Positions 19,067 to 61,405 of a stretch of 64,000 nucleotides of DNA are shown one piece after another. Each line of letters starts with the position of its first letter. Position 1 is the stretch's first letter. A program made the translations under genes and the position numbers. The notes under the pieces are model-generated. The model did no database searches, was not told where the DNA came from, and saw nothing but the letters and a program-made list of their open reading frames with translations. Source of the DNA: a virus (taxonomy: Duplodnaviria; Caudoviricetes); IMG/VR virus record IMGVR_UViG_3300017791_000194, positions 1 to 64,000 of that record; one strand, 5' to 3'.

Positions 19067-19148
19067 CCATGCCACGCCTTGCCAAGCCAAGGCACGCCGA
19101 GCCAAACCATGCCGAGCCACGGCTAGCCATGCCTAGCCACGCCACGGC
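19067..19148 (-). ncRNA. GGY-NN array A1 (16 units), candidate guide RNA divergent from the RAMP gene
   Basis: gccgt ggcgt ggcta ggcat ggcta gccgt ggctc ggcat ggttt ggctc ggcgt gcctt ggctt ggcaa ggcgt ggcat; TACGCT 4 nt upstream. Confidence 0.75.
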
Positions 19149-19172
19149 CTACAGCGTACAAGGAGACGTGCA

Positions 19173-19814
19173 ATGAGCACCACCGACATCGAGAACGGCA
19201 GAGAGCTGACCGCCCTCGATCCCGTCAGCAACGACGGCGAACCAATCATCAAGTTTCAGGAGCCCTTCGTGGCGCGAGTCACGATCCAGGGCGTGAGCGC
19301 GATCTTGTTTCACAGATGGAGCAACGAAGCGGTCGCTGCCAAGGCCGCCGCTGCGAAGAACAGCAAGGCGAAGAAGTCAGACGACGTCGAGTCGTACTTG
19401 TATCGCGCCGACAACGGCAACATCGGCATCCCCGGTGAGTACCTGCGGCGCTCGATCATCACCGCTGCGAAGTTCAAGCAGGACCCTCGCTCGCCACGGA
19501 AGTCGGCGATGGACCTGTACCAGGCGAGCATCATCAGCCTGACCGACCTTGCCGATACCGGCGCCAAGGAGCCCGACTACATCGACCGCCGCCGGGTGAC
19601 CGTGCAGCGATCTGGTGTGACGCGGGAGCGACCGGCGCTGCGGGCTGGCTGGACGGTCACGTTCGATCTGCTCTGCCAGTCTCCCGAGTACATCTCGCCT
19701 CAAGACCTTCTTGACACGATCACTCAGGCTGGCCGACTGGTCGGGATGGCTGACTTCCGCCCGAGCTTCGGCCGCTATCAGGTGACCCGGTTCGAGGTCA
19801 CGCCCGCGGCATGA
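19173..19814 (+). CDS. Standalone Cas7/Csm3-like RAMP protein (Vipr-like candidate effector)
   Basis: RVTIQGVSAILFH, IGIPGEYLRRSI, thumb-like RRRVTVQRSGVTRERP, GWTVTFDL, G-rich loop AGRLVGMADFRPSFGRYQV; AAGGAG RBS. Confidence 0.8.
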   Translation: MSTTDIENGRELTALDPVSNDGEPIIKFQEPFVARVTIQGVSAILFHRWSNEAVAAKAAAAKNSKAKKSDDVESYLYRADNGNIGIPGEYLRRSIITAAKFKQDPRSPRKSAMDLYQASIISLTDLADTGAKEPDYIDRRRVTVQRSGVTRERPALRAGWTVTFDLLCQSPEYISPQDLLDTITQAGRLVGMADFRPSFGRYQVTRFEVTPAA

Positions 19815-20110
19815 CCGAGAACCTGCGCCCACTGGCGGCGTGGGACTCCGACGATCCGGTCGTCAAAGGCGTGGCCTGGTGGTCACGCCTTGACGGTCGG
19901 TATCAAGTCGAGGTCCAGTACGCCGACAGCGACGGCTACAGAGGCACTCTTGTCGTCTTCGATCACAACGATGGCGACCGAGTGATCCACTCAGAAGAGA
20001 CGCCGATCGCGTACGCGGCGCGCTTCGGGCCAGACATGCAAGACGTCGAGCGCTGGCAGACCCGCGTTCTCGAAGTCATCGACCAGTACAACTCAGGAGC
20101 AGTTGTGTAA
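19811..20110 (+). CDS. Hypothetical protein (99 aa)
   Basis: ATGA-coupled to the RAMP gene. Confidence 0.6.
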   Translation: MTENLRPLAAWDSDDPVVKGVAWWSRLDGRYQVEVQYADSDGYRGTLVVFDHNDGDRVIHSEETPIAYAARFGPDMQDVERWQTRVLEVIDQYNSGAVV

Positions 20111-20490
20111 TGCACCGTAACGACAATGGCGAGAACCTCGTGGTCGTCAACAAGCGCGACCTGATCAAGGCACTTCAGGCGAACCGCGAGAACCATCGCG
20201 CTGAGTTCGAGAAGGCCCTTGACGGCTTCGAGAAGACGGCCGTCGAGATCCTGAAGGCACGCCTCGCTGAGGCGAAGAAGGGCATCAAGCGGGCGATCAG
20301 CGTGAACCTGCCGATGCCTGAGGATCACACCCGTGACTACGATCGGCGTATCCGGATGTACGAGATGGACATCGAGGACAACGTCGAGCTGACCGAGGCC
20401 GAGTTCGCGCAGTACGTCCAGGACGACTGGGGCTGGAAGCAACAGTGGACCACGAGCAACACCGCCTACATGGCGGCAAGTGCGAAGTGA
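20110..20490 (+). CDS. Conserved phage hypothetical protein
   Basis: TAATG coupling; IELTEAEFAQYVQDDWGW-type motif. Confidence 0.65.
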   Translation: MHRNDNGENLVVVNKRDLIKALQANRENHRAEFEKALDGFEKTAVEILKARLAEAKKGIKRAISVNLPMPEDHTRDYDRRIRMYEMDIEDNVELTEAEFAQYVQDDWGWKQQWTTSNTAYMAASAK

Positions 20491-20735
20491 GGAACCGCAT
20501 CCTCGCCATCATCGCGATCAGCGTCGTGGGTGCGGCGCTGATCTTCTTCGGCTTCGGGCTGTACCTGTTGTCACAGCCGGACATCGTGACGATGGTCCCG
20601 TCGACACCGCCGCCGACAACCGACGTCGTCACGCATTCGCGTGACTTTGCGTTGGTCACCACGGTCATCGCTGGGGTTGCTGTCGGCCTGGCTGCATTGA
20701 TCGCTGGGATGGCGGCGTCGGAGATGCGCGAGTGA
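20487..20735 (+). CDS. Two-TM membrane protein
   Basis: GTGA coupling; two hydrophobic helices. Confidence 0.55.
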   Translation: MRNRILAIIAISVVGAALIFFGFGLYLLSQPDIVTMVPSTPPPTTDVVTHSRDFALVTTVIAGVAVGLAALIAGMAASEMRE

Positions 20736-20992
20736 GCGACGAGCCGTACAACCCGGTCAAGGCCGTCGTGATCGACACGATCAAGGCGCACATCCCGAGT
20801 CTCTCTGACGAGGATGAGGAAGCAATCCACGAGAAGGTCGTCAACTACACCTTCTCGCGGCTCAAGGACGACGAGGATCTAGCTGACTTCGCGATCCGCA
20901 CCTGTGCGTGCGGCGTGCGGGTTGATGGGTTCTATCAGTACGCAGATCATCTGATCAGCATCTTCGGTGGCGAAAGTCACTTCGGCGGCTGA
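20732..20992 (+). CDS. Hypothetical protein (86 aa)
   Basis: GTGA coupling. Confidence 0.55.
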   Translation: MSDEPYNPVKAVVIDTIKAHIPSLSDEDEEAIHEKVVNYTFSRLKDDEDLADFAIRTCACGVRVDGFYQYADHLISIFGGESHFGG

Positions 20993-20994
20993 TC

Positions 20995-21079
20995 ACCATG
21001 CCATGCCTCGCCATGCCGCACCAAGGCTGACCGAGCCTCAGCCCGCCCCGCCAAGCCACGCCGCGCCATGCCAAGGCTT
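20995..21079 (-). ncRNA. GGY-NN array A2 (about 17 units)
   Basis: Starts gcctt ggcat ggcgc ggcgt, ends ggcat ggcat ggtga; TAGTAT 5 nt upstream. Confidence 0.65.
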
Positions 21080-21090
21080 CACATACTAAA

Positions 21091-21269
21091 GGCAAGCCAA
21101 GCGGAGGCTAGGTGCGGCGTGGCCAGGCTCGCATTGGCGAAGGCCGGGACCGGTACGGCAAGGCTCGGCGAGGCAAGCGATGCCGGGGCTGGGTTCGGCG
21201 GGGTTTGGTGCGGCCGGGCGTTGGCAAGCGGGGGCATTGGCGGGGGCTGGCCCAGGCAGGGCGAGGTTC
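21091..21269 (+). ncRNA. GGY-NN array A3 (about 35 units, degenerate)
   Basis: Phased GGC/GGT with several +1 slips; back-to-back with A2. Confidence 0.6.
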
Positions 21270-21292
21270 ATCTACGCGTACAGGAGATCAAC

Positions 21293-21493
21293 ATGGCAAC
21301 AAGGAACCCTCGGATGCTCAGCCCTGCGGCGCTTGCGAAGCAGCGGGCGTTCGGGACAGAGCGACACACCGTTGAGTCCATCAACTACATCACTGACGAG
21401 CTGACCTGCTCGTGCGGCAACTGGACGGGCCCTGCGCTCGATCTCGCTCCGTTCCGAGCACATCGTCGTCAGTTCTTCAAGTCAAGGCGATGA
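21293..21493 (+). CDS. Small hypothetical protein (66 aa)
   Basis: AGGAG RBS; CSC...H motif. Confidence 0.55.
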   Translation: MATRNPRMLSPAALAKQRAFGTERHTVESINYITDELTCSCGNWTGPALDLAPFRAHRRQFFKSRR

Positions 21494-21495
21494 GC

Positions 21496-21697
21496 GGCGG
21501 GGTGCGGCAGGGCTTGCTACGCCGTGGCATTGGTGGGGCGGGGAAAGCGGAGGCTAGCCGCGGCTAGGTCTGCGATGGCGAGGTGGGGCTTGGCACGGCA
21601 AGGCGTGGCAAGGCAAGCGGTGGTCTGGTCTGGTCTGGCGGGGTCGGGCTCGGGCACGGCAAGCGAAGCCGAGGCTAGCCTTGGCATGGTAAGGTCA
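21496..21697 (+). ncRNA. GGY-NN array A4 (about 40 units, longest)
   Basis: Phased pentamers with two single-base insertions. Confidence 0.65.
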
Positions 21698-22171
21698 CAC
21701 ACCGTGACGACCTACCGCGAGCTTGGTGAACGTCTTGGGGTCGACGTCTGCACCGGCTGCGATCTCGACACGAGCGGCAAGCACGGTCTGAACCATGAGG
21801 CTGGGCGCTGGGGCGCCGACGGCCGGTTCCACTATTTCGAGCGGGCCATGCGCCGGTCGAGCATCCGCAACTTCGTGTGGCGGATCTCGGGATACTGGCC
21901 GCCGCGTGAACATGGTCACGGCCCACGGCAAGCGTGGGAACTCTACTGGGAACGTATCCAGTGGGCCAAGGGAGCGCTTCGCGCGCTCCGCGTACGACTA
22001 CCTTCTCCCGCGTGGGACACGCAACGAGCGACGCTTCGGGCGCTGCTCGCCGTGCCCGCGCGGGATTTTTTTGATGAGGTTTTCACGGAGCACCGAGCGG
22101 TCACTCGTAAGGCGGCCTGGCGCTGGGCGAAGAAGCCCATTGATCACGCTGATCCTTCGTACGATGATTGA
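21686..22171 (+). CDS. Hypothetical protein; ATG supplied by the array's GGCAT-GG unit
   Basis: MVRSHTVTTYRELGERLGVDVCTGCD... Confidence 0.5.
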   Translation: MVRSHTVTTYRELGERLGVDVCTGCDLDTSGKHGLNHEAGRWGADGRFHYFERAMRRSSIRNFVWRISGYWPPREHGHGPRQAWELYWERIQWAKGALRALRVRLPSPAWDTQRATLRALLAVPARDFFDEVFTEHRAVTRKAAWRWAKKPIDHADPSYDD

Positions 22172-22174
22172 CCA

Positions 22175-22420
22175 ATGCCAGCACCGCGCGTCGACCCACT
22201 CTCACAACGGCTTCTGGTTCAGGTTCTGCGGCGTGCCCTGGACCTCCATCTCCACCAGCCTCACGACCGGACTGCCGAACGGCGGGTCCGCGCGATCGTC
22301 CTGCGCAATCCGAAGTCTGCCCTCAGCTCTCACGTACGACACAACCTGGGCAGGCAGCGGCGTGAGGCGCTCGATGCCATCTTGGCCCGAGCCGACGCTC
22401 GTTCGTTGACCGATGGTTGA
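22175..22420 (+). CDS. Hypothetical protein (81 aa)
   Basis: ORF track. Confidence 0.4.
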   Translation: MPAPRVDPLSQRLLVQVLRRALDLHLHQPHDRTAERRVRAIVLRNPKSALSSHVRHNLGRQRREALDAILARADARSLTDG

Positions 22421-22574
22421 GAAGCTCAAGCTCCACGAGTTCAAGCCCCAGCGGGCCAATCGCTTCGCCTGCGAAGAGTGCCCGTATTTGGCGAACAATC
22501 CCGTACACGTTCGCGGGTTCAAGGCTGACGCAACCTACATCAAGGGGGTGGCTCGCCCGAACAAGACGGGCTAG
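22413..22574 (+). CDS. Small CxxC protein (53 aa)
   Basis: MVEKLKLHEF...CEECPY...H. Confidence 0.45.
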   Translation: MVEKLKLHEFKPQRANRFACEECPYLANNPVHVRGFKADATYIKGVARPNKTG

Positions 22575-22581
22575 CCTCAAC

Positions 22582-22709
22582 GCCTTGGCATGGCTGGGCC
22601 GGGTATGGCTGGGCATGGCGGGGCATGGCGGGGTTTGGCTTGGTGAGCCAGGGCTAGGCGCGGCGTGGCTAGGCGTGGCAAGGCATGGTCGTGACAGTCA
22701 GCTGTCACG
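22582..22709 (+). ncRNA. GGY-NN array A5 (22 units in perfect phase) plus 3' hairpin
   Basis: TAGCCT, 4 nt, gcctt ggcat ggctg ... ggcaa ggcat ggtcg; hairpin CGTGACAG-TCAG-CTGTCACG 22690-22709. Confidence 0.8.
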
Positions 22710-22730
22710 GGGAGACCTGATGATGCTGGC

Positions 22731-23504
22731 ATGAATCCCCTGGTGCTGAGCGGCAGCTCTCTGAACACCTGGTTCGAGTGCCCGCGCGAGTGGATGTACC
22801 AGTACCTCTGGCGCAAGGAGATGCCCCTCAGCTACAAGATGGCACTGGGGGTAGCGGCGCACGAGGCGGTCGAGGCGGCCTTCCGGTACCAGAAGGCGAC
22901 CGCCATGCTGGCGCCGCTACAGATCTACGAAGAGGCGTTCAACCATTTCTGGGCTGAGACCACCAAGAACAGCCGCCCGAAGAATAACCAGCCTGCCGAG
23001 AGCGCCGAGACATACCGTCGCTCGGGGCTCCAGGCGGTCGGCTTCTACGCCCGGCAGGTCGCGCCGACCATCGACGTAGTCGCTTTCGAGGAGCCGATGG
23101 CGGCCACGATCAACGGCCACACCTGGACCGGCACCCTCGACCTGATCGATCGGATGCCCGACGGTGGCCTGCGGCTCCGGGACCACAAGTTCACCTCGAA
23201 GAAGCCCAACCCAGACCAATACAAGCGCCCGATGATCGGCTACTACCTGATGGCCCGACAGCGGTACGGCGACATCGCGGCGGTCCAGCTGGACTACATC
23301 ATCCGGGGCAACCGGGACCGCCCGCCGCAGTTCGTACCAGTCTTGCTTGACATCACCGAGGAGGACATACTGGACTTCGCGACCGACGTTGAGGAAGCGG
23401 TCGCGAGCATCAACGTCGGTCGCTTTCCGCCACTGGGCAACCAAACGCTCGCCTGTCGCTGGTGCCCGTACCGGAAGATCTGCCCTGACGCCAGATTGCG
23501 CTAG
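22731..23504 (+). CDS. PD-(D/E)XK (Cas4/RecB-like) exonuclease with Fe-S cysteines
   Basis: SGSSL..WFECPR, GVAAHEAVE, GTLDLIDR...RDHK, CRWCPYRKIC. Confidence 0.85.
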   Translation: MNPLVLSGSSLNTWFECPREWMYQYLWRKEMPLSYKMALGVAAHEAVEAAFRYQKATAMLAPLQIYEEAFNHFWAETTKNSRPKNNQPAESAETYRRSGLQAVGFYARQVAPTIDVVAFEEPMAATINGHTWTGTLDLIDRMPDGGLRLRDHKFTSKKPNPDQYKRPMIGYYLMARQRYGDIAAVQLDYIIRGNRDRPPQFVPVLLDITEEDILDFATDVEEAVASINVGRFPPLGNQTLACRWCPYRKICPDARLR

Positions 23505-23519
23505 CAAGGAGGTTCGCTG

Positions 23520-24458
23520 ATGGCCACGGCAACGAAGACCCGGGTCAATCCCCTGCCTGATACCCCCCCGCCGCCGGAGAACCCACCGCGACCGGAGATG
23601 ACTCCCGAAGAGGGGCGTGCGGTGTTCGAGGAGGCGAAGCGGATCTTCGAGCCCGAGTCGGTCGATGGCATCTACACCGATGCCAAGGGCGAGCCGCTCT
23701 CGCTCGTCAGCCGGATCGCGAAGATCACCGCCAGCCTGCCCGAGGTCAAGCCGGAGGGCGAGAACCAGCACTTCAAGTACAAGTTCGTCACCGACAAGCA
23801 AGTCCTGGGGCTGATCCGGCCAAAGCTGGCCAAGCAGCACATCATCATCGTGCCGGACACCGTCACCGAGCAGGAGCCGATCAACCAGGAGACGCAGCGC
23901 GGCGGACGCTCGATGCTCACTCGTCTGCACGTTGTCTTCCGGGTCATTGATGGCCTGAGCGGCGATACGTTCACGGGTGAGGCCGTGGGCTACGGCGACG
24001 ACTCCGGCGACAAGGGCGCCAACAAGGCGTACACCGCGGCGCTCAAGAACTTCCTGATCAAGCTGTTCATGCTCGGCGGTGCCGATCGCGACATTGAGGA
24101 CGACCCCGAAACGGACAAGCGCGCCTCTGCCCGCGAGCGCGCCGTGGCGCCAGTCCAGGCGGTTGAGGTCAAGGAGACGATCGTTGAGAGCGTCGCCCGG
24201 GGCGGCCGCTCCAGCACTGCCACGCTGGCCCAGGTCCAGGCCGTCAGTCGGCTGGTGGCGTCGCTGGGCCTCACGCCACAACGGCTGGCTGGAGCCATCG
24301 AGATCATCCTCGGCAAGCCCGACCTGGAGTTTCGCAACTTTGGCGACGCCAAGCTGTTCCTCGAAGCTCTGTCGGGCGAGGAGATCGGTCAGGTCATCGA
24401 GTCGCTGAGCAACGACGAGGAGGCTCAGGTCGGCGAGGAGGCCGGGCCGGATGCCTGA
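23520..24458 (+). CDS. ERF-family ssDNA-annealing protein
   Basis: GENQHFKYKF...GYGDDSGDKGANKAYTAALKNFL. Confidence 0.8.
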   Translation: MATATKTRVNPLPDTPPPPENPPRPEMTPEEGRAVFEEAKRIFEPESVDGIYTDAKGEPLSLVSRIAKITASLPEVKPEGENQHFKYKFVTDKQVLGLIRPKLAKQHIIIVPDTVTEQEPINQETQRGGRSMLTRLHVVFRVIDGLSGDTFTGEAVGYGDDSGDKGANKAYTAALKNFLIKLFMLGGADRDIEDDPETDKRASARERAVAPVQAVEVKETIVESVARGGRSSTATLAQVQAVSRLVASLGLTPQRLAGAIEIILGKPDLEFRNFGDAKLFLEALSGEEIGQVIESLSNDEEAQVGEEAGPDA

Positions 24459-24690
24459 GCCTGAGTACACCAACGGCCGCATCCGGGTTCGCCCGGAACA
24501 GATCGACTACCTCGACAACCTGCTCCATCTGACCTGGCTCGACGTCTCGCGCCAGCGGGCGCAGGTCAAGCAGGTACTGGCATCGATCAGCGAGCCAGCC
24601 ATCGTGACCGAGATGAATCGCGAGCTGCGGCTGATCAAGAGCATCCAGGAAGAAGTTCGGCGGACCAAGGAGGATATGGGCCGTGCCTGA
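24451..24690 (+). CDS. Hypothetical protein (79 aa)
   Basis: ORF track. Confidence 0.55.
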   Translation: MPEPEYTNGRIRVRPEQIDYLDNLLHLTWLDVSRQRAQVKQVLASISEPAIVTEMNRELRLIKSIQEEVRRTKEDMGRA

Positions 24691-25090
24691 ACGGCAGTTC
24701 CCGATCGAGCGAACACCAGATGGTGGCTACAGGCTGCGTGAGCTGACCTGCTGGGACTGTGGCGGCACCTACACCCTGCCCTACGGCGACCATGCCTCGT
24801 CGGCAGCGCACCGGGCCTGGCTCGCCGAGAAGCGCGCCAAGACCGAGATCACCGCGTTCGACAATATCCCCGACGAACCCACAGTACCTGTGGAGAACCC
24901 TCAGAAACTCGTCTTCGGCGACGTCAAGGTGTGCCCCCGTTGTCGCGGCACGCTACGCCCGGAACGGCGCGACCGCAAGGGCGTGCTGCTGCCCGCCGAT
25001 ACGTTCACCCACGACCCCCTCGACCGGGAGGGGCGCTGCTCGAAGTGTCAGGGCACGGGCATCGTGGCCCTTGAAGGCCGGAGTGGATGA
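24683..25090 (+). CDS. Zinc-finger protein
   Basis: CWDCG, CPRCRG, CSKCQGTG. Confidence 0.55.
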   Translation: MPERQFPIERTPDGGYRLRELTCWDCGGTYTLPYGDHASSAAHRAWLAEKRAKTEITAFDNIPDEPTVPVENPQKLVFGDVKVCPRCRGTLRPERRDRKGVLLPADTFTHDPLDREGRCSKCQGTGIVALEGRSG

Positions 25091-25334
25091 TCTGGTCGTC
25101 GGGCTCCAGAAGGCTCGGCTACTGGTCTTCCTGCGCCGGTTCGCGTCCTTCTCCAACGATGACCGCGACGCCCTGCTGCTGATCGGCCTGGCCGTGGGCC
25201 TGCGTCTGGCCGCAAAACATCCCGAAGCCGCGGCGAACATCCTCGTTGACCTCGGCCCGCCGATCATGGATCAGTCGCTCGACTGGGTCGTGCGGGGCAG
25301 TGATGAGATCGATCCGGAGCTGCCTGTCAACTAG
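25083..25334 (+). CDS. Hypothetical protein
   Basis: GTG 25083; overlaps the upstream stop region. Confidence 0.45.
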   Translation: MDDLVVGLQKARLLVFLRRFASFSNDDRDALLLIGLAVGLRLAAKHPEAAANILVDLGPPIMDQSLDWVVRGSDEIDPELPVN

Positions 25335-25462
25335 CCTTGCAGCGGCATTGCAGGAGGAGTACCTTCGACAGCCTTGGTACGTCGCCCGCAGACGGGCATA
25401 GAAAAGGGCCCCGACGAGTCTGACAGCGCCGGGGCCCCAACACAGGAAGGAACGAGCTTCCC

Positions 25463-25921
25463 ATGTCCCACAGGGACTATACCGCTCCCCTGGGCCGCTT
25501 GACAACACCAGTCGACTGGCAGCGCCGCCTCGCAGGGACGAACCCACAACCCATTGTCGTGAAGGGCATGCACCGCGTCTTCTGGGTGCCCGCGAAGTAC
25601 GTCAGCGTCGCCGCCGTGTTGTTCGATGGCCGCAAGCACACCAATCGCGAGATCGCGGCCCGCACTGGCTACAGCGTGAAGGGTGCCTGGGCTGCCATCC
25701 GGGCGCTGGAGAGGATGGCCATCCTTGCAGTCGTGACGACCGTCAAGGGCTGTAAGGGCTGGACGCGCGCCAGGGTCGCCGCCGACGCTCAGGTCCAGAA
25801 TGTTTCCACCACAGTAGAGACGTTCCTCAAAGAGACCCGTACTGTGGTGGAAACATTCATCTGGGGGGCGCCTCCCGGGGCCCGAACTGGCCTCGGGGCT
25901 GCCGCCCTTCCAGCCAGGTGA
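25463..25921 (+). CDS. Winged-HTH protein, putative replication initiator
   Basis: TNREIAARTGYSVKGAWAAIRALE; internal 19-bp inverted repeat. Confidence 0.5.
   Translation: MSHRDYTAPLGRLTTPVDWQRRLAGTNPQPIVVKGMHRVFWVPAKYVSVAAVLFDGRKHTNREIAARTGYSVKGAWAAIRALERMAILAVVTTVKGCKGWTRARVAADAQVQNVSTTVETFLKETRTVVETFIWGAPPGARTGLGAAALPAR
25798..25858. repeat. Perfect 19-bp inverted repeat (candidate origin)
   Basis: GAATGTTTCCACCACAGTA, 23 nt, TACTGTGGTGGAAACATTC. Confidence 0.8.
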
Positions 25922-26078
25922 ACCCCGAGAAGCGCCGATTGCAACGCAAGGCCAAGGCCAAGGCCTCCAGGCATCGCCCTCGACCTGTCGATCGCGACCT
26001 CAACCTGGAGCTGACCCCGAAGGGAGCAGCGATCCTGGCCTACGATCGAGCCATTGGTGGCATGGACGAGGAGGCGGA

Positions 26079-26618
26079 GTGAAGCCCACCGGACCGCGCT
26101 GCATCTTCCACACAACCTTCCTCCGTCGGGAGGTGGACCCGCGCGTGGCGGCGCTGTGGCCCTCGAAGCCAGTCCCGTTTGGCGATCTGCGCCGGACCTG
26201 GCGACTCAGGCACTGCGCCACGGTGAATCCATACTGGGACTCCGAGATGTGCCCGTATCCAGCCAGCAACTGCGCCCTGGCCTTCCTCGCGGCCGTCCAG
26301 ACCGCTACATTCACTGGCGTTCGTAATCCGATGGGGCTCTTCCGGACCCTGGCTCGGAGCGATGGGCTCCGGCGGCTCGAAGACAAGCCGCTGGCGAGGG
26401 ACCAGGCTCGTGGCCAGGAAGGACCCAGTCTCACCGGAGCTGCGCCAGCTGGTGCTGAATCGGGACTACGCGGCGATGCGGGCAGCGGGCCTGCACGCGA
26501 AGGGACAGACGTGCGTGGCGCCCCTCGTCGACCCGTCACAGTGGGGACTGTGCTGGGGTCGCTCAACCTTGGACCACATCAAGGACCAGGCCCGGATGGG
26601 CCTGCGAGCGCCGAGTGA
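26079..26618 (+). CDS. Hypothetical protein, possibly replication-associated
   Basis: VRNPMGLFRTLAR resembles initiator C-termini; 3' part overlaps the next gene. Confidence 0.4.
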   Translation: MKPTGPRCIFHTTFLRREVDPRVAALWPSKPVPFGDLRRTWRLRHCATVNPYWDSEMCPYPASNCALAFLAAVQTATFTGVRNPMGLFRTLARSDGLRRLEDKPLARDQARGQEGPSLTGAAPAGAESGLRGDAGSGPAREGTDVRGAPRRPVTVGTVLGSLNLGPHQGPGPDGPASAE

Positions 26619-26757
26619 CGAGACCCACCTGGTCGCGCTCTGTGAGGGCCACACCGAGGCCGGAGCGCGTGCTGGCTATCAGTGGAACACAGCGCATCGA
26701 CCCGAACTCCGTGTCTACCTGGCTCTCGCAGTGGTGGAAGACACCGAGGATGAATGA
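26410..26757 (+). CDS. HNH-like endonuclease
   Basis: LRQLVLNRD...C...C.GRSTLDHIK...HLVALCEGH. Confidence 0.6.
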   Translation: MARKDPVSPELRQLVLNRDYAAMRAAGLHAKGQTCVAPLVDPSQWGLCWGRSTLDHIKDQARMGLRAPSDETHLVALCEGHTEAGARAGYQWNTAHRPELRVYLALAVVEDTEDE

Positions 26758-26920
26758 CCCAGAGTTCGCCATCTGGCGCTTCTGGGCCTGGTTCAAGCAC
26801 CTGTTCTGGGTCCACACCTGGGTACCCCGCGAAGATTGGAAGATGACCGAGAACGGCGCCGAGATCACGATCATCGGCTACATCTGCTGGCTTTGCCCGG
26901 CCAAGCGAGATCTTGACTGA
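26750..26920 (+). CDS. Small Trp-rich hypothetical protein
   Basis: GAGG RBS; H...CWLC. Confidence 0.4.
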   Translation: MNDPEFAIWRFWAWFKHLFWVHTWVPREDWKMTENGAEITIIGYICWLCPAKRDLD

Positions 26921-27168
26921 TGGGTTACGTCCCGCCGCTTCCGCCGCCCGATCCCGCGTTGATCAGTACCGAGTACGGCCGCCCGCGCGACCTGTTCCGC
27001 CCGAACCTCGACCGGTTCGGGATGCCCCGTGATTTCGCGACATACATGTGGGCGACCTACGGGCCTGGCCGCGACCTCGACCCCGAGCGGCGCCGATTCC
27101 TCTACCCACCGCGCGAAGACCCAGTGTTCGAGCACCACGCCTTCGGCCAGCAGATCTGCATGCGCTGA
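26920..27168 (+). CDS. Hypothetical protein (82 aa)
   Basis: TGATG coupling. Confidence 0.5.
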   Translation: MGYVPPLPPPDPALISTEYGRPRDLFRPNLDRFGMPRDFATYMWATYGPGRDLDPERRRFLYPPREDPVFEHHAFGQQICMR

Positions 27169-27608
27169 TGACCCAGACCGCTGTACAGCGCCGGTTCGTC
27201 CGACTTGCGGGCAGTATGAACGCCCGGGCTGCGAGGCTGGGACGCAACGGCCGGGTCGTCTCGGGTGACCTGCTCAAGGTGTTCCTGCACACCGCCTACC
27301 AATGCCCCTACTGCGGCATTGGGATCACGCCCCTCGATTGCTCGTTTGATCACGTCGTCCCGTTCGATGCTGGCGGCGAAAACGAGAAGGGCAACCTCGT
27401 TGCTTGTTGCCTCAGCTGCCAGCGCCAGAAGGCTCGTCGCTTGGCCCACGAGTTCGCCCTCGCGCGCGCGTACACGGCTTCCTGTGAGGTCTGCGGCCGG
27501 AACTTCAAACCCCGCTGGGCCGACGTCCGCAGAGGCTACGGCACGACCTGCTCTGCGCAATGTGCGGGCAAGAAGGGTCGTGCGATACGATCAGCGAGCG
27601 CGGCGTGA
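27168..27608 (+). CDS. HNH endonuclease with C-terminal zinc finger
   Basis: CPYCG...FDHVVP...GGENEKGNLVACCLSCQRQK; CEVCG...CSAQC. Confidence 0.8.
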   Translation: MTQTAVQRRFVRLAGSMNARAARLGRNGRVVSGDLLKVFLHTAYQCPYCGIGITPLDCSFDHVVPFDAGGENEKGNLVACCLSCQRQKARRLAHEFALARAYTASCEVCGRNFKPRWADVRRGYGTTCSAQCAGKKGRAIRSASAA

Positions 27609-27731
27609 CAAGGCACGCCATGGCCTGGAGTGGTGGGCCAAGGCTAGGTCAGGCTGGGCGAGGTGAGGCTTGGTTCGCTCGGGCGAGCCGTGGCCTGGTG
27701 GAGCGGGGCGAGGCAAGGTAGGGCATGGCAT
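27602..27731 (+). ncRNA. GGY-NN array A6 (26 units)
   Basis: In phase from the HNH stop into the RusA start; ends ggcat ggcat. Confidence 0.7.
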
Positions 27732-28120
27732 GGACCGTCATCATCCCGCGTCCGCCATCGGTCAACAGTCTGTACCGCGTGGTGCTGCGAACAGCGCGAG
27801 ATGGGCGGCGGTTCCACGGGATCGCGAAGACCGAGGAGGGCACACGGTTCCATGAGGACTCGCTCTGGCTTCTGCGGGCGGCGCCGCGCAACGGCTGGAA
27901 ACCACCCGCCGAGGGCTACATCAGGATCAAGGTCCGCCCGTTCCTGGTTCGACCGATCGATTCAGACAACTTGTTGAAGGCCCTGAGCGACGTGATCCAG
28001 GCGGCCATTGGCGTCGATGATTCCAGATTCGTTTGGTGTACGTTCCCGCCCAAACTCGGGGTGCGCAAGGCCGACGCCCGGATCGAGCTTGAAATCCTGG
28101 ACGACGCCGGGCACGATTGA
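27725..28120 (+). CDS. rusA: RusA-like Holliday junction resolvase
   Basis: PPSVNSLY...DSDNLLKALSD...VDDSR. Confidence 0.8.
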   Translation: MAWTVIIPRPPSVNSLYRVVLRTARDGRRFHGIAKTEEGTRFHEDSLWLLRAAPRNGWKPPAEGYIRIKVRPFLVRPIDSDNLLKALSDVIQAAIGVDDSRFVWCTFPPKLGVRKADARIELEILDDAGHD

Positions 28121-28127
28121 CGTTCAT

Positions 28128-28282
28128 GGCGAGGCACGGCCTGCCGAGGCACGGCTGGGGTTGGCTAGGCCGGGCAAGCCGTGGCTAGGCGAGGTCTGGC
28201 TGGGCAAGGCTGGGCTGGGGGAGGCGTGGCGAGGCTAGCCAGGGCTGGGCAAGGCGAGGCAAGGCCGGGTGAGGCGTGGCAA
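28128..28282 (+). ncRNA. GGY-NN array A7 (31 units)
   Basis: Perfect 5-nt phase across 155 nt. Confidence 0.75.
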
Positions 28283-28710
28283 GGGTTGTTGTAGCTGGTT
28301 CTCGGGACATCGAGGATGCTGACGGGGCGGCTTGGTGGCTGTTCGATGTCATTCGCGTGATGGATGACCCGACAGTGATCATGCGGCGCGGCCGGGAGAC
28401 CGAGCCGGGACCGCTCGAAGAGGCCGTGGCGTTCCAGTGTCGCGACTATGGCATCCCGATCGAGTGGCGCGTGCCTGCACCCGGCGGTCGCCAGGAGGTC
28501 TTCAACCGGGACATGGACATGGTCACTGGCGCCGATCTCGTCCTGGCCGTGTTCTCACCGGAGCGAGCGATGTCAGGCGGCACGGCGCACGTCGTCGAGA
28601 AGGCGATGGACATCCGCGTGCCCGCCTACGCCTTCGCGTACACAGGCAGGCTGGAGCGAGTGGGCGAGTTCGACCCAGATGACATCTGGAGCAAACACAT
28701 CAAGCTCTAG
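28276..28710 (+). CDS. SLOG-superfamily (DUF2493/YspA-like) protein
   Basis: VVVAGSRD...RDMDMV...VLAV...SGGTAHVVEKA. Confidence 0.65.
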   Translation: MARVVVAGSRDIEDADGAAWWLFDVIRVMDDPTVIMRRGRETEPGPLEEAVAFQCRDYGIPIEWRVPAPGGRQEVFNRDMDMVTGADLVLAVFSPERAMSGGTAHVVEKAMDIRVPAYAFAYTGRLERVGEFDPDDIWSKHIKL

Positions 28711-28922
28711 ACTCTGGCTGTATACCAGCGCCCGGGAAACAGGTGGGGGTCGACGGTATCGGCTGCGACGCCTTCGGGACGCAAGCCGGGCTGGCGCAGA
28801 GACAACAGACATGTGGCTCGCTCCCACGGAAGCGCCGGGGTTGATGAGAGGCCCGGCGTGGCAACGCCAGTAGCTCCGTCCCGTGAGGTGCCTGCTGTAA
28901 TCGGGGTCGGCGCTGGTATACA

Positions 28923-29366
28923 GTGCGCGCGATGGACGCGACCGCGCAGATGCTCACCCAGTCGGAGCGCCTGCTCAAGCACTTCCGTGCAGAGTTCGAG
29001 CGCGAGATCCCGATCCGCATCCACAGTCGCGACACAGCCGACGACGGAGCGCCGCAATGGCACCCCGAGTTCGCCCGCTGGTTGACCGCGAAGGAGTCCG
29101 ACACCAACAGCTACATCACCAACGGCGAGCATCGGCTCCGGACAAGGCGTGCGATGCGCAAGCTGCGCGGCACCTCGATTCGGGGCTTCGAGGTAACCTG
29201 GCGAGTCTTCGGTGGCGAACGTGTGGAGGACACCGCCCGATGGCTCAACGACCGCGCCGAGCGCAACGCACTGCCGCTCCCGCCAGGGCGAACGACCCAC
29301 TACCGAACGAAGGACGCGCTGGCCATCCTGTACGCCTCACTGCTCTTCATGGAGTGGGCGTACTAG
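28923..29366 (+). CDS. Hypothetical protein, possible transcription regulator
   Basis: ORF track; position before the late boundary; function inferred only weakly. Confidence 0.5.
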   Translation: MRAMDATAQMLTQSERLLKHFRAEFEREIPIRIHSRDTADDGAPQWHPEFARWLTAKESDTNSYITNGEHRLRTRRAMRKLRGTSIRGFEVTWRVFGGERVEDTARWLNDRAERNALPLPPGRTTHYRTKDALAILYASLLFMEWAY

Positions 29367-29373
29367 GCACATT

Positions 29374-29513
29374 GGCGAGGCGTGCCGTGGCTGGCCAGGG
29401 TCTGGCATGGCGGGGCAGGGCGAGGCGGGGTCTGGCTTGGTTCGGCATGGCTAGGTCAGGCGTGGCCAGCCACGGCTGGGCTCGGCGCGGCATGGCGGGG
29501 CTTGGCATGGTGA
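29374..29513 (+). ncRNA. GGY-NN array A8 (28 units)
   Basis: Perfect phase; ends ggctt ggcat ggtga. Confidence 0.75.
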
Positions 29514-30016
29514 TCTTGCTGGCGGCGCCAGCCACCGCGGTGGCGCCGTCAGCACCTCGATCGATCCCTGACGCGGCGTTCGCGCCGGTGACCGTTCCGC
29601 AGGTCATCTACGATTTCCCCGAGCCAATGCCCGGGCAGCGGCCGGTGATCAAGCTGCCGAACAAGCCGATCGTTGAGGTGCAGCACCATGTAGATCGATC
29701 ACGACCGGAAGCTTCCATCGGCCGGTCGATTTCTGGGCAAGCCAGCTGGTATTGCCGCGCTGGTGTCTCGGCTTGCCGCTACGCCTACCCAGACGGGCCA
29801 GGCTTCGATGCCTATGCCGCAGCTGGCCCGAAGCTCCGTGCGGCGCTCGGCGACTGGCGCGGCCGGGTCGTCACCGTCAACGGCATCCGCGTGAAGCTCA
29901 TCGACTGGTGTCAGTGCTCGAAGGGCAAGCCGGGCGAGAAGATCATCGATCTGTACTTCGATGTTGCCCGTGCTCTGGGCATCACCGGAGTCGGCCCGGT
30001 CACGATACGCTGGTAG
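29507..30016 (+). CDS. RlpA-like double-psi beta-barrel protein (putative lytic transglycosylase)
   Basis: GQASWY...AAA...KLIDWC...IIDLYFDVARALG...VGPVTIRW. Confidence 0.65.
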   Translation: MVILLAAPATAVAPSAPRSIPDAAFAPVTVPQVIYDFPEPMPGQRPVIKLPNKPIVEVQHHVDRSRPEASIGRSISGQASWYCRAGVSACRYAYPDGPGFDAYAAAGPKLRAALGDWRGRVVTVNGIRVKLIDWCQCSKGKPGEKIIDLYFDVARALGITGVGPVTIRW

Positions 30017-30113
30017 GCCGTGGCGCGGCCGGGCAGGGCAAGGCCTGAGCGGGCCGGGGCTCGGCGAGGCAGGGCAAGGTGGGGCTGGGCTAGGGCGTGG
30101 CATGGCATGGCAT
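30017..30113 (+). ncRNA. GGY-NN array A9 (about 19 units)
   Basis: TACGCT-ggtag-GCCGT leader nearly identical to A1; ends ggcat x3. Confidence 0.7.
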
Positions 30114-30120
30114 GGAACGC

Positions 30121-30148
30121 TTGACAACCTGACTGAACGTGTTAGCCT
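30121..30148 (+). promoter_or_regulatory. Promoter upstream of the tRNA region
   Basis: TTGACA, 16 nt, TAGCCT with a TGn extension. Confidence 0.55.
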
Positions 30149-30382
30149 GCCATTCCTGGTCAGATTTCCAATGGACCGGAGGACTGATCAGGTAGAGTGC
30201 TTGCCCCTGGACGGACAAGGCTTTGGCCCCGAGCAAATAGGGCTTGCCCCCTGAAGCGCACAACGGGGATGGGTAGCGAGTGGTCCAGGGGCATCCGAAG
30301 GAGGCTCTCGATGTTCACGCGATAGGGACGGCATCACGAAGTGCCGTCCACATGACGGCCGCCGTCCCGCGCAAGGGACATC

Positions 30383-30574
30383 ATGGGCGTCGACAAGCAA
30401 TCCAAGAAGGTCAAGAGGGCAACCCTCTCGGCCAAGCCGCGCTACGGGGGCGACCCGTACGTGGACCGTCACGGAGTGTCAACCGAAAATCATCTTCAGC
30501 TCTGGCGTCGCCTGGTGGCGAACGGACCCGTGATGCACGGGCCTCCGGGCCCACCGCGACCCCACAAGAGCTGA
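30383..30574 (+). CDS. Small basic protein (63 aa)
   Basis: ORF track; AAGGGA upstream. Confidence 0.4.
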   Translation: MGVDKQSKKVKRATLSAKPRYGGDPYVDRHGVSTENHLQLWRRLVANGPVMHGPPGPPRPHKS

Positions 30575-30649
30575 ACCACGCCACGCCATGCCTGGGCTTG
30601 CCTCGCCGTGCCGAGCCATGGCCCACCGTGCCCGGCCTGGCCTCGCCAA
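30575..30649 (-). ncRNA. GGY-NN array A10 (15 units), divergent from tRNA-Gln
   Basis: TATGAT (30662-30657) upstream on the minus strand. Confidence 0.65.
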
Positions 30650-30663
30650 GATGTTCATCATAG

Positions 30664-30739
30664 TGCCGGGTGGCCAAGTAGGTAAGGCACCGCGCTCTGA
30701 ACGCGGCAATCGCTGGTTCGAGTCCAGCCCCGGCAACCA
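30664..30739 (+). tRNA. tRNA-Gln (CTG)
   Basis: UGCCGGG/CCCGGCA acceptor, CCGCG-CT-CTG-AA-CGCGG, GGTTCGAGTCC, encoded CCA. Confidence 0.92.
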
Positions 30740-30877
30740 ATCAACATGGCGGCAGACGGGATGTCCGCGGCAGTCCCGCCAACCAGACAGAGACGGTGAG
30801 ACCGGACCCGGTTCCGCCCGGGCGAGCACTCTGCCGATCGAAGGACCGAGCCCAGGGTCGTGGGCAGCCGTCTCCAT

Positions 30878-30962
30878 GGCATAGGGAAGCGCTGGGGTCA
30901 GCGCGCTGGCTGGTGAGTGCCTCGACAGCCAGAGGTCTGGGTTCGAGTCCCGGCCCTGTGCC
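30878..30962 (+). ncRNA. tRNA-like element with extended anticodon arm
   Basis: GGCATAGGG/CCCTGTGCC stem, GCGC D-stem, CTGGCTG-13 nt-CAGCCAG, CTGGG-TTCGAGT-CCCGG; no CCA. Confidence 0.6.
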
Positions 30963-30968
30963 GCCTTC

Positions 30969-31044
30969 GCCGACGTAGCTCAGTGGACAGAGCGGCTGGT
31001 TTCTACCCAGCATGTCGCGGGTTCGACTCCTGCCGTCGGCGCCA
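30969..31044 (+). tRNA. tRNA-Arg (TCT)
   Basis: GCCGACG/CGTCGGC, GCTGG-TT-TCT-AC-CCAGC, encoded CCA. Confidence 0.92.
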
Positions 31045-31047
31045 TCG

Positions 31048-31124
31048 GGGCGGCTAGCTCAGTTGGTCAGAGCATCTGGTCGACATCCAGAAGGCCGCTG
31101 GTTCAAGTCCAGCGCCGCCCACCA
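31048..31124 (+). tRNA. tRNA-Val (GAC)
   Basis: GGGCGGC/GCCGCCC, TCTGG-TC-GAC-AT-CCAGA, encoded CCA. Confidence 0.92.
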
Positions 31125-31134
31125 GGACAAACTG

Positions 31135-31186
31135 AAACCCCCTGGACTGACAGACCCTTGCGGGGCTGCCCTTCCAGGGGGTTTTT
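31135..31186. terminator. Bidirectional intrinsic terminator
   Basis: AAACCCCCTGGA...TCCAGGGGGTTT followed by TT. Confidence 0.7.
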
Positions 31187-31481
31187 ACATGGTGGCGGGA
31201 CTGCCTACCCGCACGGACGTCGCGACTTGTGGTTCAAGTACAACTTGCGTCCGACACACCCGTCGTCAGTGGCTAGCTGACTAGTCGTTCAGAGATCACC
31301 TCCCTCGCCATCAACCCTTTGGTCGATGGTCCGGGTCTCCTCCACCTGCGCGCCTCACCCTCGTAGGCCTTGACAACGCTGGCGTTTCCTGAACCGGGCG
31401 CTCCGTTTCACCAGGGGCCGCGAAGCCCCGGTCATTCCGGCATCACCCTGCGATGCTCCGTCGAACACCGCATTGTCAAGC

Positions 31482-31511
31482 ATTCTAGGTGTGTTCTGGT
31501 AGGCTTGTCAA
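31482..31511 (-). promoter_or_regulatory. Near-consensus leftward promoter
   Basis: TTGACA, 18 nt, TAGAAT. Confidence 0.65.
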
Positions 31512-31517
31512 GCAAGC

Positions 31518-31607
31518 GGCGCGGCTAGGTTGGGCTAGCCGTGGCTGGGCATGGTGCGGCGTGGCTGGGCAGGGCATGGCTAGGTGTGGCCCGGTCAGGC
31601 TGGGCGT
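31518..31607 (+). ncRNA. GGY-NN array A11 (18 units)
   Basis: Perfect phase; convergent with the end of the late operon. Confidence 0.75.
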
Positions 31608-51291: not shown

Positions 51292-51300
51292 GTTAGAGGG

Positions 51301-52647: not shown

Positions 52648-52650
52648 TGA

Positions 52651-55174: not shown

Positions 55175-55205
55175 GAACCCCTCCCACGCCCATACGGGCT
55201 GATGG

Positions 55206-55532: not shown

Positions 55533-55540
55533 CGTTGCTC

Positions 55541-60241: not shown

Positions 60242-60260
60242 CAGCGTTCACCGGGCACGC

Positions 60261-60288
60261 AAAAGCCGGGCCCCCGAAGGAGCCCGGC
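60261..60288 (-). terminator. Intrinsic terminator
   Basis: GCCGGGCTCC-TTCG-GGGGCCCGGC-TTTT on the minus strand. Confidence 0.7.
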
Positions 60289-60444
60289 GGTGCGTGTAGT
60301 TGTGCTGATGGTGGTCGGCATGGGATTGCCTCTCGGTCAGCCCATTGGATTGGGCTGGACTAGATCACTTCCACAATGAAACGAGAAGGCCCAGGAGGGC
60401 GAGCAGCCCCGGCCCGGCGAGGACGATGAGCCTAGTACGACGAG

Positions 60445-60915
60445 TCATGGAGCGGTGTCCGGGGAGGGGTGCGAGGTTGAGCCAGCCGGGTAGCTAGCGA
60501 GGCCTGCGCGCCCCTCCCGAGAGACCGCTCGAAGACGACGCCATTCACGAATCACCTCTGACTGGCCGAAGCGAGCCACCACGGCGTCGATCGTCTCGCC
60601 ACTCGGGACTTGTTCGCCCCGGCAGATGCGCCAGACCGCGCTGTGATCCACGGCTAGCTCACGACCCATCTGATGCGCCGATGCGCGCGACATCAGCGAG
60701 CGAATCACATCGGTGAACAAGATCTCGGGTCGATCATCGTTCTGCCGCGCGCGGCGCAATGCTGAACGCTGACGTTCGCGTTCGCGGTACTCGGGGTGGT
60801 CCGCCTTCCAGGCCTTGGACCGAGCGCTCCAGAATTCTGGGTCGTCGCTGTGCTGTTTACCGTGACCGCCGCGGGAGCCCACACCGGTCTGGACGCTGCG
60901 GGCTGACCGCTTCAA
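60445..60915 (-). CDS. Protein with C-terminal XRE-like HTH
   Basis: SAHQMGRELAVDHSAVWRICRGEQVPSGETI. Confidence 0.5.
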   Translation of the reverse strand: MKRSARSVQTGVGSRGGHGKQHSDDPEFWSARSKAWKADHPEYRERERQRSALRRARQNDDRPEILFTDVIRSLMSRASAHQMGRELAVDHSAVWRICRGEQVPSGETIDAVVARFGQSEVIREWRRLRAVSREGRAGLASYPAGSTSHPSPDTAP

Positions 60916-60918
60916 ATC

Positions 60919-61302
60919 TCACCGTGGCCCTCGTGCTTTGACCTGGAGGATGCCGAGCTGGTCGACGTCATCGCCGCCGACCACAACGCCGTCGGGCATC
61001 ACCCACAGACGCTGTTCGATCCCGTTGACAAGCTTCTTGCCGATGCCGTAGGCGATGATCTCGTTGCTGCCGCCAGATCCAGCGATGCCGACATGACGAG
61101 CCGTGTAGTACGGCTGATCACCAGGGTTGACCCGGACGGTCAGCACGATGGCTGAGTCACTCTTGCGGCGTAGCAGCCACCAGCCGGGGCGCCGCAGCCA
61201 AGATGAGTACGTGGCATGCCACTGATGCTCTTCAACATCAACAAACAGAACAGCTTGATCATCATCAACGATCATCAGATCGTAGGGCGTTGATTCGTTC
61301 AT
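60919..61302 (-). CDS. Hypothetical protein
   Basis: ATG 61302; the longer ORF's N-terminus is array sequence. Confidence 0.55.
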   Translation of the reverse strand: MNESTPYDLMIVDDDQAVLFVDVEEHQWHATYSSWLRRPGWWLLRRKSDSAIVLTVRVNPGDQPYYTARHVGIAGSGGSNEIIAYGIGKKLVNGIEQRLWVMPDGVVVGGDDVDQLGILQVKARGPR

Positions 61303-61310
61303 ACTGCCCT

Positions 61311-61405
61311 GCCTTGGCACGGCGAGTCTGGGCATGGCCGGGTCGGGCCTGGCGGGGTTGGGCTGGGCATGGCGTGGGAGGAGCTGTTCATCCGAGCAGC
61401 TCCTC
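61311..61405 (+). ncRNA. GGY-NN array A12 (13 units) plus 3' hairpin, antisense to the late operon
   Basis: CATACT, 5 nt, gcctt ggcac...ggcat ggcgt; hairpin GAGGAGCTGTTC-ATCC-GAGCAGCTCCTC 61378-61405. Confidence 0.75.

Follow-up and report, generated by a model that had tools for sequence, protein, structure and literature searches.

How the many short arrays of GGC-NN pentamers in the genome of one uncultured phage are transcribed is the question raised by this locus. The sequence analyzed (hereafter the window) comprises bases 1-64000 of IMG/VR virus record IMGVR_UViG_3300017791_000194, a 74,082-bp genome with direct terminal repeats that is estimated to be complete. When the genome was scanned using a script scoring GGC at period 5, 14 arrays were observed, 12 of them in the window, spread over 52 kb on both strands and numbered A1 to A14 by position. 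The arrays are guide RNA (vrRNA) genes of VIPR, a known kind of system, and A1 lies directly upstream of vipr, the gene of its guide-binding protein. A -10-like hexamer, TANNNT, precedes eight or nine of the 14 arrays at a nearly fixed distance. Judging from their sequence and position, these hexamers are probably promoters, and many of the arrays would then be separate small transcription units.

Leader hexamers of the arrays

The arrays, their leaders and vipr are located as follows; lower-case letters give the spacer between hexamer and first unit, and ORF denotes an open reading frame.

19039..19066, minus strand: 11-bp hairpin right after A1, a tail or terminator (minimum free energy −27.8; z −4.8, 200 shuffles)
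19069..19148, minus strand: A1 vrRNA array, GCCGT (19144-19148) and 15 units, ending GGCAT; antisense, directly upstream of vipr
19153..19158, minus strand: A1 -10-like hexamer TACGCT, first base 15 nt upstream of the first GGC unit; gtag at 19149-19152
19173..19814, plus strand: vipr gene by profile match and model fold, Cas7-like guide-binding protein of VIPR, 213 aa
20993..21077, minus strand: A2 vrRNA array, GCCTT (21073-21077) and 16 units
21083..21088, minus strand: A2 hexamer TAGTAT, then gtgaa; its complement overlaps the CATACT before A3
21090..21262, plus strand: A3 array in several phases, without a perfect hexamer of its own; preceded by CATACT (21082-21087) and aaa, then GGC
21494..21696, plus strand: A4 array, beginning right after the stop of ORF 21293-21493; no hexamer
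22572..22577, plus strand: A5 hexamer TAGCCT, TAG being the stop codon of ORF 22413-22574; then caac
22582..22691, plus strand: A5 array, GCCTT (22582-22586) and 21 units, then a hairpin at 22690-22709 (z −1.9)
27586..27591, plus strand: A6 hexamer TACGAT, within the end of the upstream coding frame
27602..27731, plus strand: A6 array, 26 units; terminal CATGG overlaps the start of a RusA-like ORF at 27725
28128..28282, plus strand: A7 array, 31 units; near-hexamer CACGAT (28112-28117) forms the last codons of the RusA-like ORF
29374..29513, plus strand: A8 array, 28 units; near-hexamer TACTAG (29361-29366) holds a stop codon; strong hairpin after the array
30006..30011, plus strand: A9 hexamer TACGCT, in the last codons of ORF 29510-30016; ggtag at 30012-30016
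30017..30113, plus strand: A9 array, GCCGT (30017-30021), then three phase-shifted blocks, ending GGCATGGCATGGCATGG
30573..30652, minus strand: A10 array, 15 units and a leader unit ATCTT; antisense, between ORF 30383-30574 and tRNA-Gln
30657..30662, minus strand: A10 hexamer TATGAT, then 7 nt, tt and GGC from 30647
31500..31505, plus strand: A11 hexamer TAGGCT
31518..31607, plus strand: A11 array, 18 units; hairpin after the array
31526..31531, plus strand: second candidate hexamer of A11, TAGGTT, 6 nt before an internal GCCGT (TAGGTT-gggcta-GCCGT)
61300..61305, plus strand: hexamer-like CATACT of A12 (only A at 2 and T at 6), CAT being the start codon of the divergent ORF 60919-61302; then gccct
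61311..61375, plus strand: A12 array, GCCTT (61311-61315) and 12 units, antisense to the late genes; hairpin at 61378-61405 (z −4.8)
Genome 67143-67247, past the window: A13 array, with hexamer TAGACT at genome 67131
Genome 71257-71351, past the window: A14 array, with hexamer TAGACT at genome 71246

An initial annotation had quoted -10-like leaders for seven of the arrays (A1, A9, A5, A2, A12, A10 and A3), and all seven are present at the places given for them. The hexamer proved real and stronger than that annotation stated. TANNNT is rare, with only 179 occurrences on both strands of the whole genome. When array starts were set by a script blind to hexamers, TANNNT began at -18 to -15 from the first GGC unit in 8 of 14 arrays (background 0.0048; binomial p = 8.7 × 10−16), and the count rose to 9 of 14 once A9 was re-anchored behind its GCCGT unit. 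Each of the other non-overlapping 4-nt windows from -60 to -6 holds the TANNNT of at most one array. The hexamers of A6 (TACGAT), A11 (TAGGCT), A13 and A14 (both TAGACT) are additional to those quoted before, and near-matches at the same distance were observed for A12 (CATACT), A7 (CACGAT) and A8 (TACTAG), with none for A4. In the case of A3, the CATACT that had been taken as its own hexamer is part of the same 7-mer, CATACTA, that holds the A2 hexamer TAGTAT on the other strand, and it is probably not a separate promoter. The leaders of A1 and A9, described as almost identical, do have TACGCTG(G)TAGGCCGTGGCG in common, with no likeness beyond it on either side.

The strands of the arrays follow the same division. 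Six arrays are antisense to their surroundings, namely A1, A2 and A10 among plus-strand genes and A12, A13 and A14 among minus-strand genes, and all six have the hexamer (five of them perfect). These arrays cannot ride on the transcripts of their neighbours because they oppose the neighbouring genes. The arrays with no or a poor hexamer at the consensus position (A3, A4, A7 and A8) are all co-oriented and begin no more than about 10 nt behind the upstream gene or array.

Counting from the hexamer, the first full YNNGGY unit opens at base 7, 8 or 9 in 12 of the 15 arrays that have a hexamer across three phages (11 scored by script, A9 by hand). The exceptions are A11 with its homologue and one array where the script pattern matched too early. 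The spacer of A11 carries the -35 box of a divergent TTGACA-N18-TAGAAT promoter. Sigma-70-type polymerase usually starts about 7 nt after the hexamer, which is where the first unit lies. A G at -14 was also observed by eye in about 6 of 11 leaders.

Conservation and turnover of arrays in related phages

Three sequences or sets of sequences were used for comparison: a syntenic relative (hereafter the relative), consisting of two contigs of one sample, G006 (25.6 kb) and G007 (35 kb), with 66-85 % nucleotide identity over aligned segments; L161, the closest vipr locus (85 % identical); and G005, a more distant relative whose Vipr is 62 % identical. No relative was found in the phage collection by megablast of 19000-31700 or tblastn of the capsid protein.

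TANNNT is present at -15 to -17 in 4 of 9 arrays of G006 and G007 (p = 3 × 10−7). The hexamer is kept at all three shared arrays that have one in the present phage, with A6 TACGAT/TACGCT, A11 TAGGCT/TAGACT and A13 TAGACT/TAGACT (phage/relative). T1, A2 and T6 are kept and the inner bases vary, the hexamer identities of 5/6, 5/6 and 6/6 forming a small sample. For A11 and A13 the upstream flank has only 7 identical positions in 25 nt, and the guides of the shared arrays differ entirely. For A6, the conservation may reflect coding constraint, because its hexamer lies within the end of the upstream coding frame. In G005, both stand-alone arrays have a hexamer, TATGCT and TAGACT (p = 1 × 10−4). 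Homology of the gene upstream of A13 with the gene beside the TAGACT array of G005 was considered and could not be established; as the proteins look unrelated, the two TAGACT hexamers were treated as independent cases.

Arrays scattered through the genome were observed only in the present phage, its close relative and G005 among the relatives compared. The complete or near-complete relatives G001 and G002 and the fragments G003 and G004 have arrays only beside vipr, in clusters of up to 63 units.

Several arrays have been gained or lost between these phages. A1 is absent from L161 and A2 is absent from both L161 and G007, while the start of A3 is conserved in both; at the A2/A3 hexamer site L161 has CATCTA. 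A5, A10 and A14 are absent from G006 and G007. At the A5 hexamer site the relative has a TGA instead of the TAG stop and no array, and the place of A5 is taken by a gene of about 600 nt and that of A10 by 318 nt of other sequence. A14, about 110 nt in all, was cleanly inserted between two genes whose stop and start overlap in the relative, and its hexamer lies 4 nt from the left edge. Conversely, G006 and G007 hold one array missing from the present phage, with the leader TACACT-cgag-CCCTT-GGCGT.

Identity of the system

ORF 19173-19814 has 6126 homologues and belongs to no Pfam family. When a profile of 44 homologues was compared with structures in PDB, it matched 36pp_D, annotated 'SUSP1 Vipr protein', with an E-value of 5.9 × 10−12. 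The fold predicted from the single sequence was poor (predicted local distance difference test score, pLDDT, 43) and was replaced by an AlphaFold2 model built with the alignment (pLDDT 85), for which the best Foldseek matches were Csm3, Cas7 and gRAMP chains (E-values 2.7 × 10−7 to 1 × 10−5). By profile and predicted fold, this array-flanked ORF is the Vipr protein. VIPR systems can have an accessory gene, vap, next to vipr. Four small ORFs (19811-20992) lie downstream of vipr here and are syntenic in L161; none has an assigned function, and one belongs to phrog_34511, a family listed as unknown.

In the accessible text of its description, VIPR consists of Vipr, a phage-encoded minimal RAMP with a Cas7-like RRM fold, and vrRNAs of 9-16 GGY/NN repeats with a 3′ tail; it binds double-stranded DNA, only the NN bases pair, and one target base is skipped per unit (bioRxiv 10.64898/2026.04.26.720920). 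The present arrays agree with this alternation of GGY and NN; the initial annotation had not assigned them to VIPR. Among 281 units there are 194 GGC, 52 GGT (246 GGY in total) and 21 GCC, and the NN positions are highly variable, with all 16 dinucleotides present. The dispersed, hexamer-led guides are an addition to the VIPR system described in 2026 and not a new kind of system. The palindrome GGCTAGCC has six copies in the genome, and all six lie in arrays or an array leader (19121, 21552, 21673, 22569, 28233 and 31533).

A1 is fully antisense to the stretch from the upstream hairpin to the vipr ribosome-binding site, so the vipr mRNA leader and the A1 vrRNA would be complementary, with possible consequences for regulation. 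In that stretch (19069-19172), no plus-strand TANNNT is present.

Guide targets

Targets were scored by the published 1-nt-skip (NNx) rule, under which shuffled guides reach at most 16/18 or 13-14/16. Self-targets of whole arrays and of 9-unit windows gave none above shuffled guides, and a target signal emerged only once the array flanks and the relatives were examined. The matches are listed below.

A1: adjacent vipr, units 4-12; 17/18 in rivals (several relatives), 14/18 in the phage's own copy
A2: end of ORF 20732-20992, units 1-9; 17/18 in the L161 homologue; own copy differs, e.g. Ser AGT for TCA
A10: adjacent ORF 30383-30574; 14/16 in rivals, 14/16 in the own copy
A12: adjacent ORF 60919-61302; 15/16 in the relative's homologue, 14/16 in the own copy
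A13: end of the adjacent 162-aa ORF; 16/16 in three relatives, 14/16 in the own copy (Ser AGT for TCN)

The six antisense arrays have an excess of near-matches within 400 nt (combined p = 5 × 10−4), and six co-oriented arrays do not (p = 0.69). For the co-oriented A4-A8 and A11, no match was clearly above shuffles, A6 alone reaching 14/16 against a 5-shuffle maximum of 13. The exact 10-unit target pattern of A12 had 0 matches in IMG/VR. In A13, the match of units 0-7 covers the final eight codons of the 162-aa gene and opens precisely with the unit that comes first after the hexamer; the preceding pentamer fails to match (1/2). As the match opens at the first unit, the RNA must include that unit and need not start earlier.

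These matches suggest that the antisense, hexamer-bearing arrays aim at the neighbouring gene and that a guide and its escape allele are kept linked. We tentatively propose that a dispersed vrRNA gene could be an insertable cassette, made of a -10 hexamer and guide units, which lands before a pre-existing hairpin, is gained and lost between relatives, and sits antisense beside the phage's own escape-mutated copy of a gene that it silences in rivals. If so, the guide (a weapon) and the resistant allele (an immunity) would be inherited as one tightly linked module.

A2 sits between the present end of ORF 20732-20992 (with Ser AGT) and a relic of an older end of this gene (21073-21100; 20960-20992). 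The relic is ttcacatactaaaggcaagcc, for which a relative has tcacatctagcaagctaagcc, and this older gene end is the sequence that A2 targets; the A2 hexamer itself derives from the relic. The relic may offer a clue to the origin of new guides, a matter that the VIPR preprints, in their accessible text, leave open.

The first unit

The initial annotation had described a 5′ grammar of hexamer followed by a GCC(G/T)T first unit. The hexamer part stands, but only 5 of 14 arrays have GCC(G/T)T ahead of their first GGC. As a first unit it is enriched in comparison with all internal units (7/281; Fisher p = 7 × 10−5) and not in comparison with internal non-GGY units (7/35; p = 0.29). A syntenic array of the relative has it too (TAGACT-gtac-GCCTT), and A11 perhaps contains it once internally. 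GCC is the commonest variant unit of this phage (21 of 35 non-GGY units), and is common in the present Vipr clade (84/424); in unrelated arrays it is not a special variant (31 of 322 non-GGY units).

We also considered internal GCC units as boundaries between guides and rejected this, as an internal GCCTT of A1 matches 2/2 in all targets. Since this unit lies in the perfectly matched guide core, GCC units mark neither boundaries nor 5′ ends. At array edges of other loci, 0 of 12 GCCKT-GGY sites had a hexamer at the right place. A strict scan of IMG/VR for TANNNT-N4 or N5-GCCKT-(GGCNN)3-GGC gave 0 matches outside the phage's own record; this pattern is too strict, and it misses the relative's TAGACT-gtac-GCCTT array because the third unit there is GCC. 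The G or GC at the 5′ edge could be the last bases before the start or the first (initiating or discriminator) bases of the RNA, and the next C would open the first C-NN-GG unit. No GG would be needed upstream of the first unit because there is no earlier NN to present.

Array 3′ ends

GGCATGG ends 10 of 14 arrays, and a hairpin follows most (z against shuffles −4.8 for A1 and A12, −2.9 for A8, −2.7 for A14, −1.9 for A5 and −1.7 for A13). No tail sequence is shared among the arrays, and the hairpins after GGCATGG are unrelated in sequence. As published VIPR types vary in architecture, the missing shared tail lowers the likeness to type II and not the membership in VIPR. The hairpins look like ordinary intergenic hairpins that cassettes landed before, unlike the conserved pseudoknot tail of SUSP1.

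In the co-oriented A4, A6 and A8, the ATG of the following gene is part of the terminal GGCATGG or overlaps it (21686, 27725 and 29505-29513); in A4, the array supplies the ATG of ORF 21686-22171. Antisense arrays with no gene behind them also end in GGCATGG.

Transcription of the arrays

If the hexamers are promoters, most vrRNA genes would be self-contained cassettes scattered on both strands, not clustered beside vipr. Each cassette would have a sigma-70-family -10 element TANNNT (often TAG/TAC-N-CT) with no recognisable -35, and a spacer that would put the expected start site, about 7 nt past the hexamer, at the first YNNGG unit. After the start would come 12-31 GGY-NN units, the terminal GGCAUGG and a hairpin ending or capping the RNA. 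The vrRNA would be a primary transcript with its 5′ end set by initiation and not by cleavage. That RNA polymerase uses the hexamers, and where the RNA starts and ends, we infer from the DNA. Elsewhere in the phage, two-box promoters use similar hexamers (TTGACA-N17-TAGCCT at 30118-30148, and TTGACA-N18-TAGAAT on the minus strand).

The proposal of the initial annotation that many arrays are independent units with -10-only promoters thus holds in part. It agrees with the position statistics, the strand logic, the conservation, the turnover of cassettes and the A13 match, and it does not extend to GCC(G/T)T, to the A3 hexamer that is probably that of A2, or to A3, A4, A7 and A8, which have no perfect hexamer.

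A number of observations weigh against the hexamers being promoters. In a two-hexamer scan of 18800-32000, no two-box promoter was found at any array and thus no -35 box at 16-18 nt, hence the promoter would be '-10-only'. Five arrays are without a perfect hexamer, including the antisense A12, which should need its own promoter and whose homologue in the relative is without TANNNT. The co-oriented A3, A4, A7 and A8 may be co-transcribed with the upstream gene or array, because they start so close behind it. The TAG of A5 is a stop codon, the hexamers of A6 and A9 are in coding sequence, the CAT of A12 is a start codon, and the near-hexamers preceding A7 and A8 are kept as codons. The relative has the hairpins that follow A5 and A14 but neither of the arrays, and these hairpins are therefore not array-specific tails. 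GCC(G/T)T is no general part of the 5′ grammar, and GCCKT units are also found inside arrays. The grammar is not general for VIPR either: the hexamer was observed in none of the 31 arrays that directly follow vipr in related loci and in only 22 of 263 mixed array clusters. In SUSP1 (L252, NC_028808, 27490-29520), every vrRNA is led by a conserved sequence of about 35 nt, of which there are two kinds, each containing an inverted repeat (cacttaa...ttaagtg, or ccttttt/aaaaagg), and a clear promoter, TTGACA-N16-TATACT, is found some 70 nt before vrRNA1.

The arrays could instead be parts of longer RNAs made from distant promoters, by operon read-through or antisense transcription, with 5′ ends cut by a nuclease and with hexamer and spacer serving as a leader for processing or protein recognition. 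Eight arrays co-oriented with upstream genes and starting 0-15 nt behind them would fit this, as would the arrays beside vipr in relatives, which have no hexamer, and the structured leaders of SUSP1; other VIPR types have arrays that are processed, staggered and ribozyme-separated, according to the accessible text of the preprint (bioRxiv 10.64898/2026.04.26.720920). We consider this unlikely in the present phage. The retention of only T1, A2 and T6, with three varying inner bases, is typical of a -10 element and not of an RNA motif; six arrays run antisense to all their neighbours; the spacing of 7-9 nt to the first unit fits initiation; and Rfam gave three tRNAs only, with no ribozyme or other family between the arrays.

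The hexamer could also be a by-product of where arrays were placed or how they arrived, its source being a stop codon, the start region or ribosome-binding site of a divergent gene, a neighbour's promoter or a preferred TA-containing insertion site. A5 and A8 overlap TAG stops and A12 a start codon, ribosome-binding sites that serve divergent genes overlap the A13 and A14 leaders, the A11 spacer contains the -35 box of a divergent promoter, the hexamer is 0-5 nt from the cassette edge in A1, A5 and A14, and that of A2 derived from pre-existing sequence. This origin is nevertheless quite unlikely, as the hexamer always shares the strand of its array and keeps a fixed distance to the first unit, regardless of what is upstream, and no TA is present at the other cassette edge. 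When 261 mixed clusters were examined, TANNNT occurred 23 times at -19 to -14 and 6 times in a mirror control at array 3′ ends, a modest enrichment. Some leaders in these mixed clusters read as textbook two-box promoters (L018 TTGACG-N17-TACTGT and L064 TTGCAC-N17-TACAGT). Finally, a chance match to a flexible, hand-picked pattern would have been a concern with the initial annotation, which admitted several different hexamers, spacers from 3 to 7 nt and three forms of the first unit, and in which CATACT is not TANNNT and the A3 hexamer duplicates that of A2. Script-set anchors and the strict TANNNT give the p values reported above for the genome, the relative and G005, which already contradict chance and make it scarcely credible.

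Comparison with known systems

The comparisons with VIPR in this section refer to the accessible text of the preprints. The present system resembles type II VIPR of Escherichia phage SUSP1 and a P. fulva prophage in having a related Vipr (the profile match given above), a Cas7-like fold and GGY-NN guides (bioRxiv 10.64898/2026.04.26.720920; 10.64898/2026.04.26.720927), and in that the 1-nt-skip code finds targets in rival phage genes, including a rival vipr. Unlike in SUSP1, which has one array upstream and three downstream of vipr, the 14 arrays are spread over 52 kb on both strands. They have 12-31 units in comparison with 9-16 in SUSP1-type VIPR; they have no shared tail or pseudoknot, ending in GGCAUGG and unrelated hairpins where the SUSP1-type tail is invariable and structured; and their leader is a TANNNT 9-12 nt before the first GGC, in place of the conserved leaders of about 35 nt in SUSP1.

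The solo vrRNAs of satellites and vipr-less phages are likewise stand-alone and far from vipr, and would have to be expressed independently; some target the vipr of competitors (bioRxiv 10.64898/2026.10.15.759431). Unlike these, the far-off arrays A12-A14, 41-52 kb from vipr, are in a phage with its own vipr and are without the conserved SUSP1-type tail.

With regard to how guides are made, the preprints use 'promoter' only in cloning or reporter contexts; 'transcription start', 'terminator' and 'biogenesis' were not found where searched, and the making of vrRNAs is not discussed in the text consulted. If the hexamers are promoters, each guide would be a primary transcript from its first repeat that needs no 5′ processing, and guides could be placed anywhere and on either strand. 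Stand-alone guides in high-GC phages could then be searched for by this rule, and guides could be tested or engineered in a minimal cassette.

In type II-C CRISPR (Neisseria, Campylobacter), each repeat carries a promoter and the CRISPR RNAs start by initiation and not by processing. The present arrays would likewise have the 5′ end of the guide set by an adjacent -10 element and would not require 5′ processing; the two differ in their proteins and in repeat-spacer logic, and the present phage would have one promoter per array, not per repeat. High-GC Gram-positive bacteria (mycobacteria, Streptomyces, Corynebacterium) have -10-only TANNNT promoters with a weak or absent -35 and a start about 7 nt downstream. 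The arrays here have the same T-A-N-N-N-T consensus, no recognisable -35 and an expected start at about this distance, and these bacteria may not be the host's group.

Genome organization and other features

The phage DNA has a GC content of about 64 %, and the only hint of a host is a Vipr homologue (58 % identity) on a contig of an Acidimicrobiaceae metagenome-assembled genome. Early and DNA-metabolism genes, including an AAA ATPase, a PD-(D/E)XK nuclease, ERF and RusA, are on the plus strand from about 7.2 to 31 kb. Structural genes, including a capsid protein, a prohead protease and a 1954-aa tape-measure-like protein, occupy the minus strand from 31.8 kb onwards to the genome end.

ORF 29510-30016 (168 aa) is inserted between A8 and A9. 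It looks secreted, with a signal-peptide-like start, is rich in Cys and has no PHROGs family match; it may resemble RlpA/DPBB lytic proteins. The relative is without this ORF, and A8 and A9 form one 39-unit cluster there.

Three tRNA genes (Gln-CTG, Arg-TCT and Val-GAC) lie between A10 and A11 (30664-31124). Within the tape-measure-like ORF 41437-47301, residues 665-708 match an HNH endonuclease domain (Pfam E-value 5.7 × 10−10).

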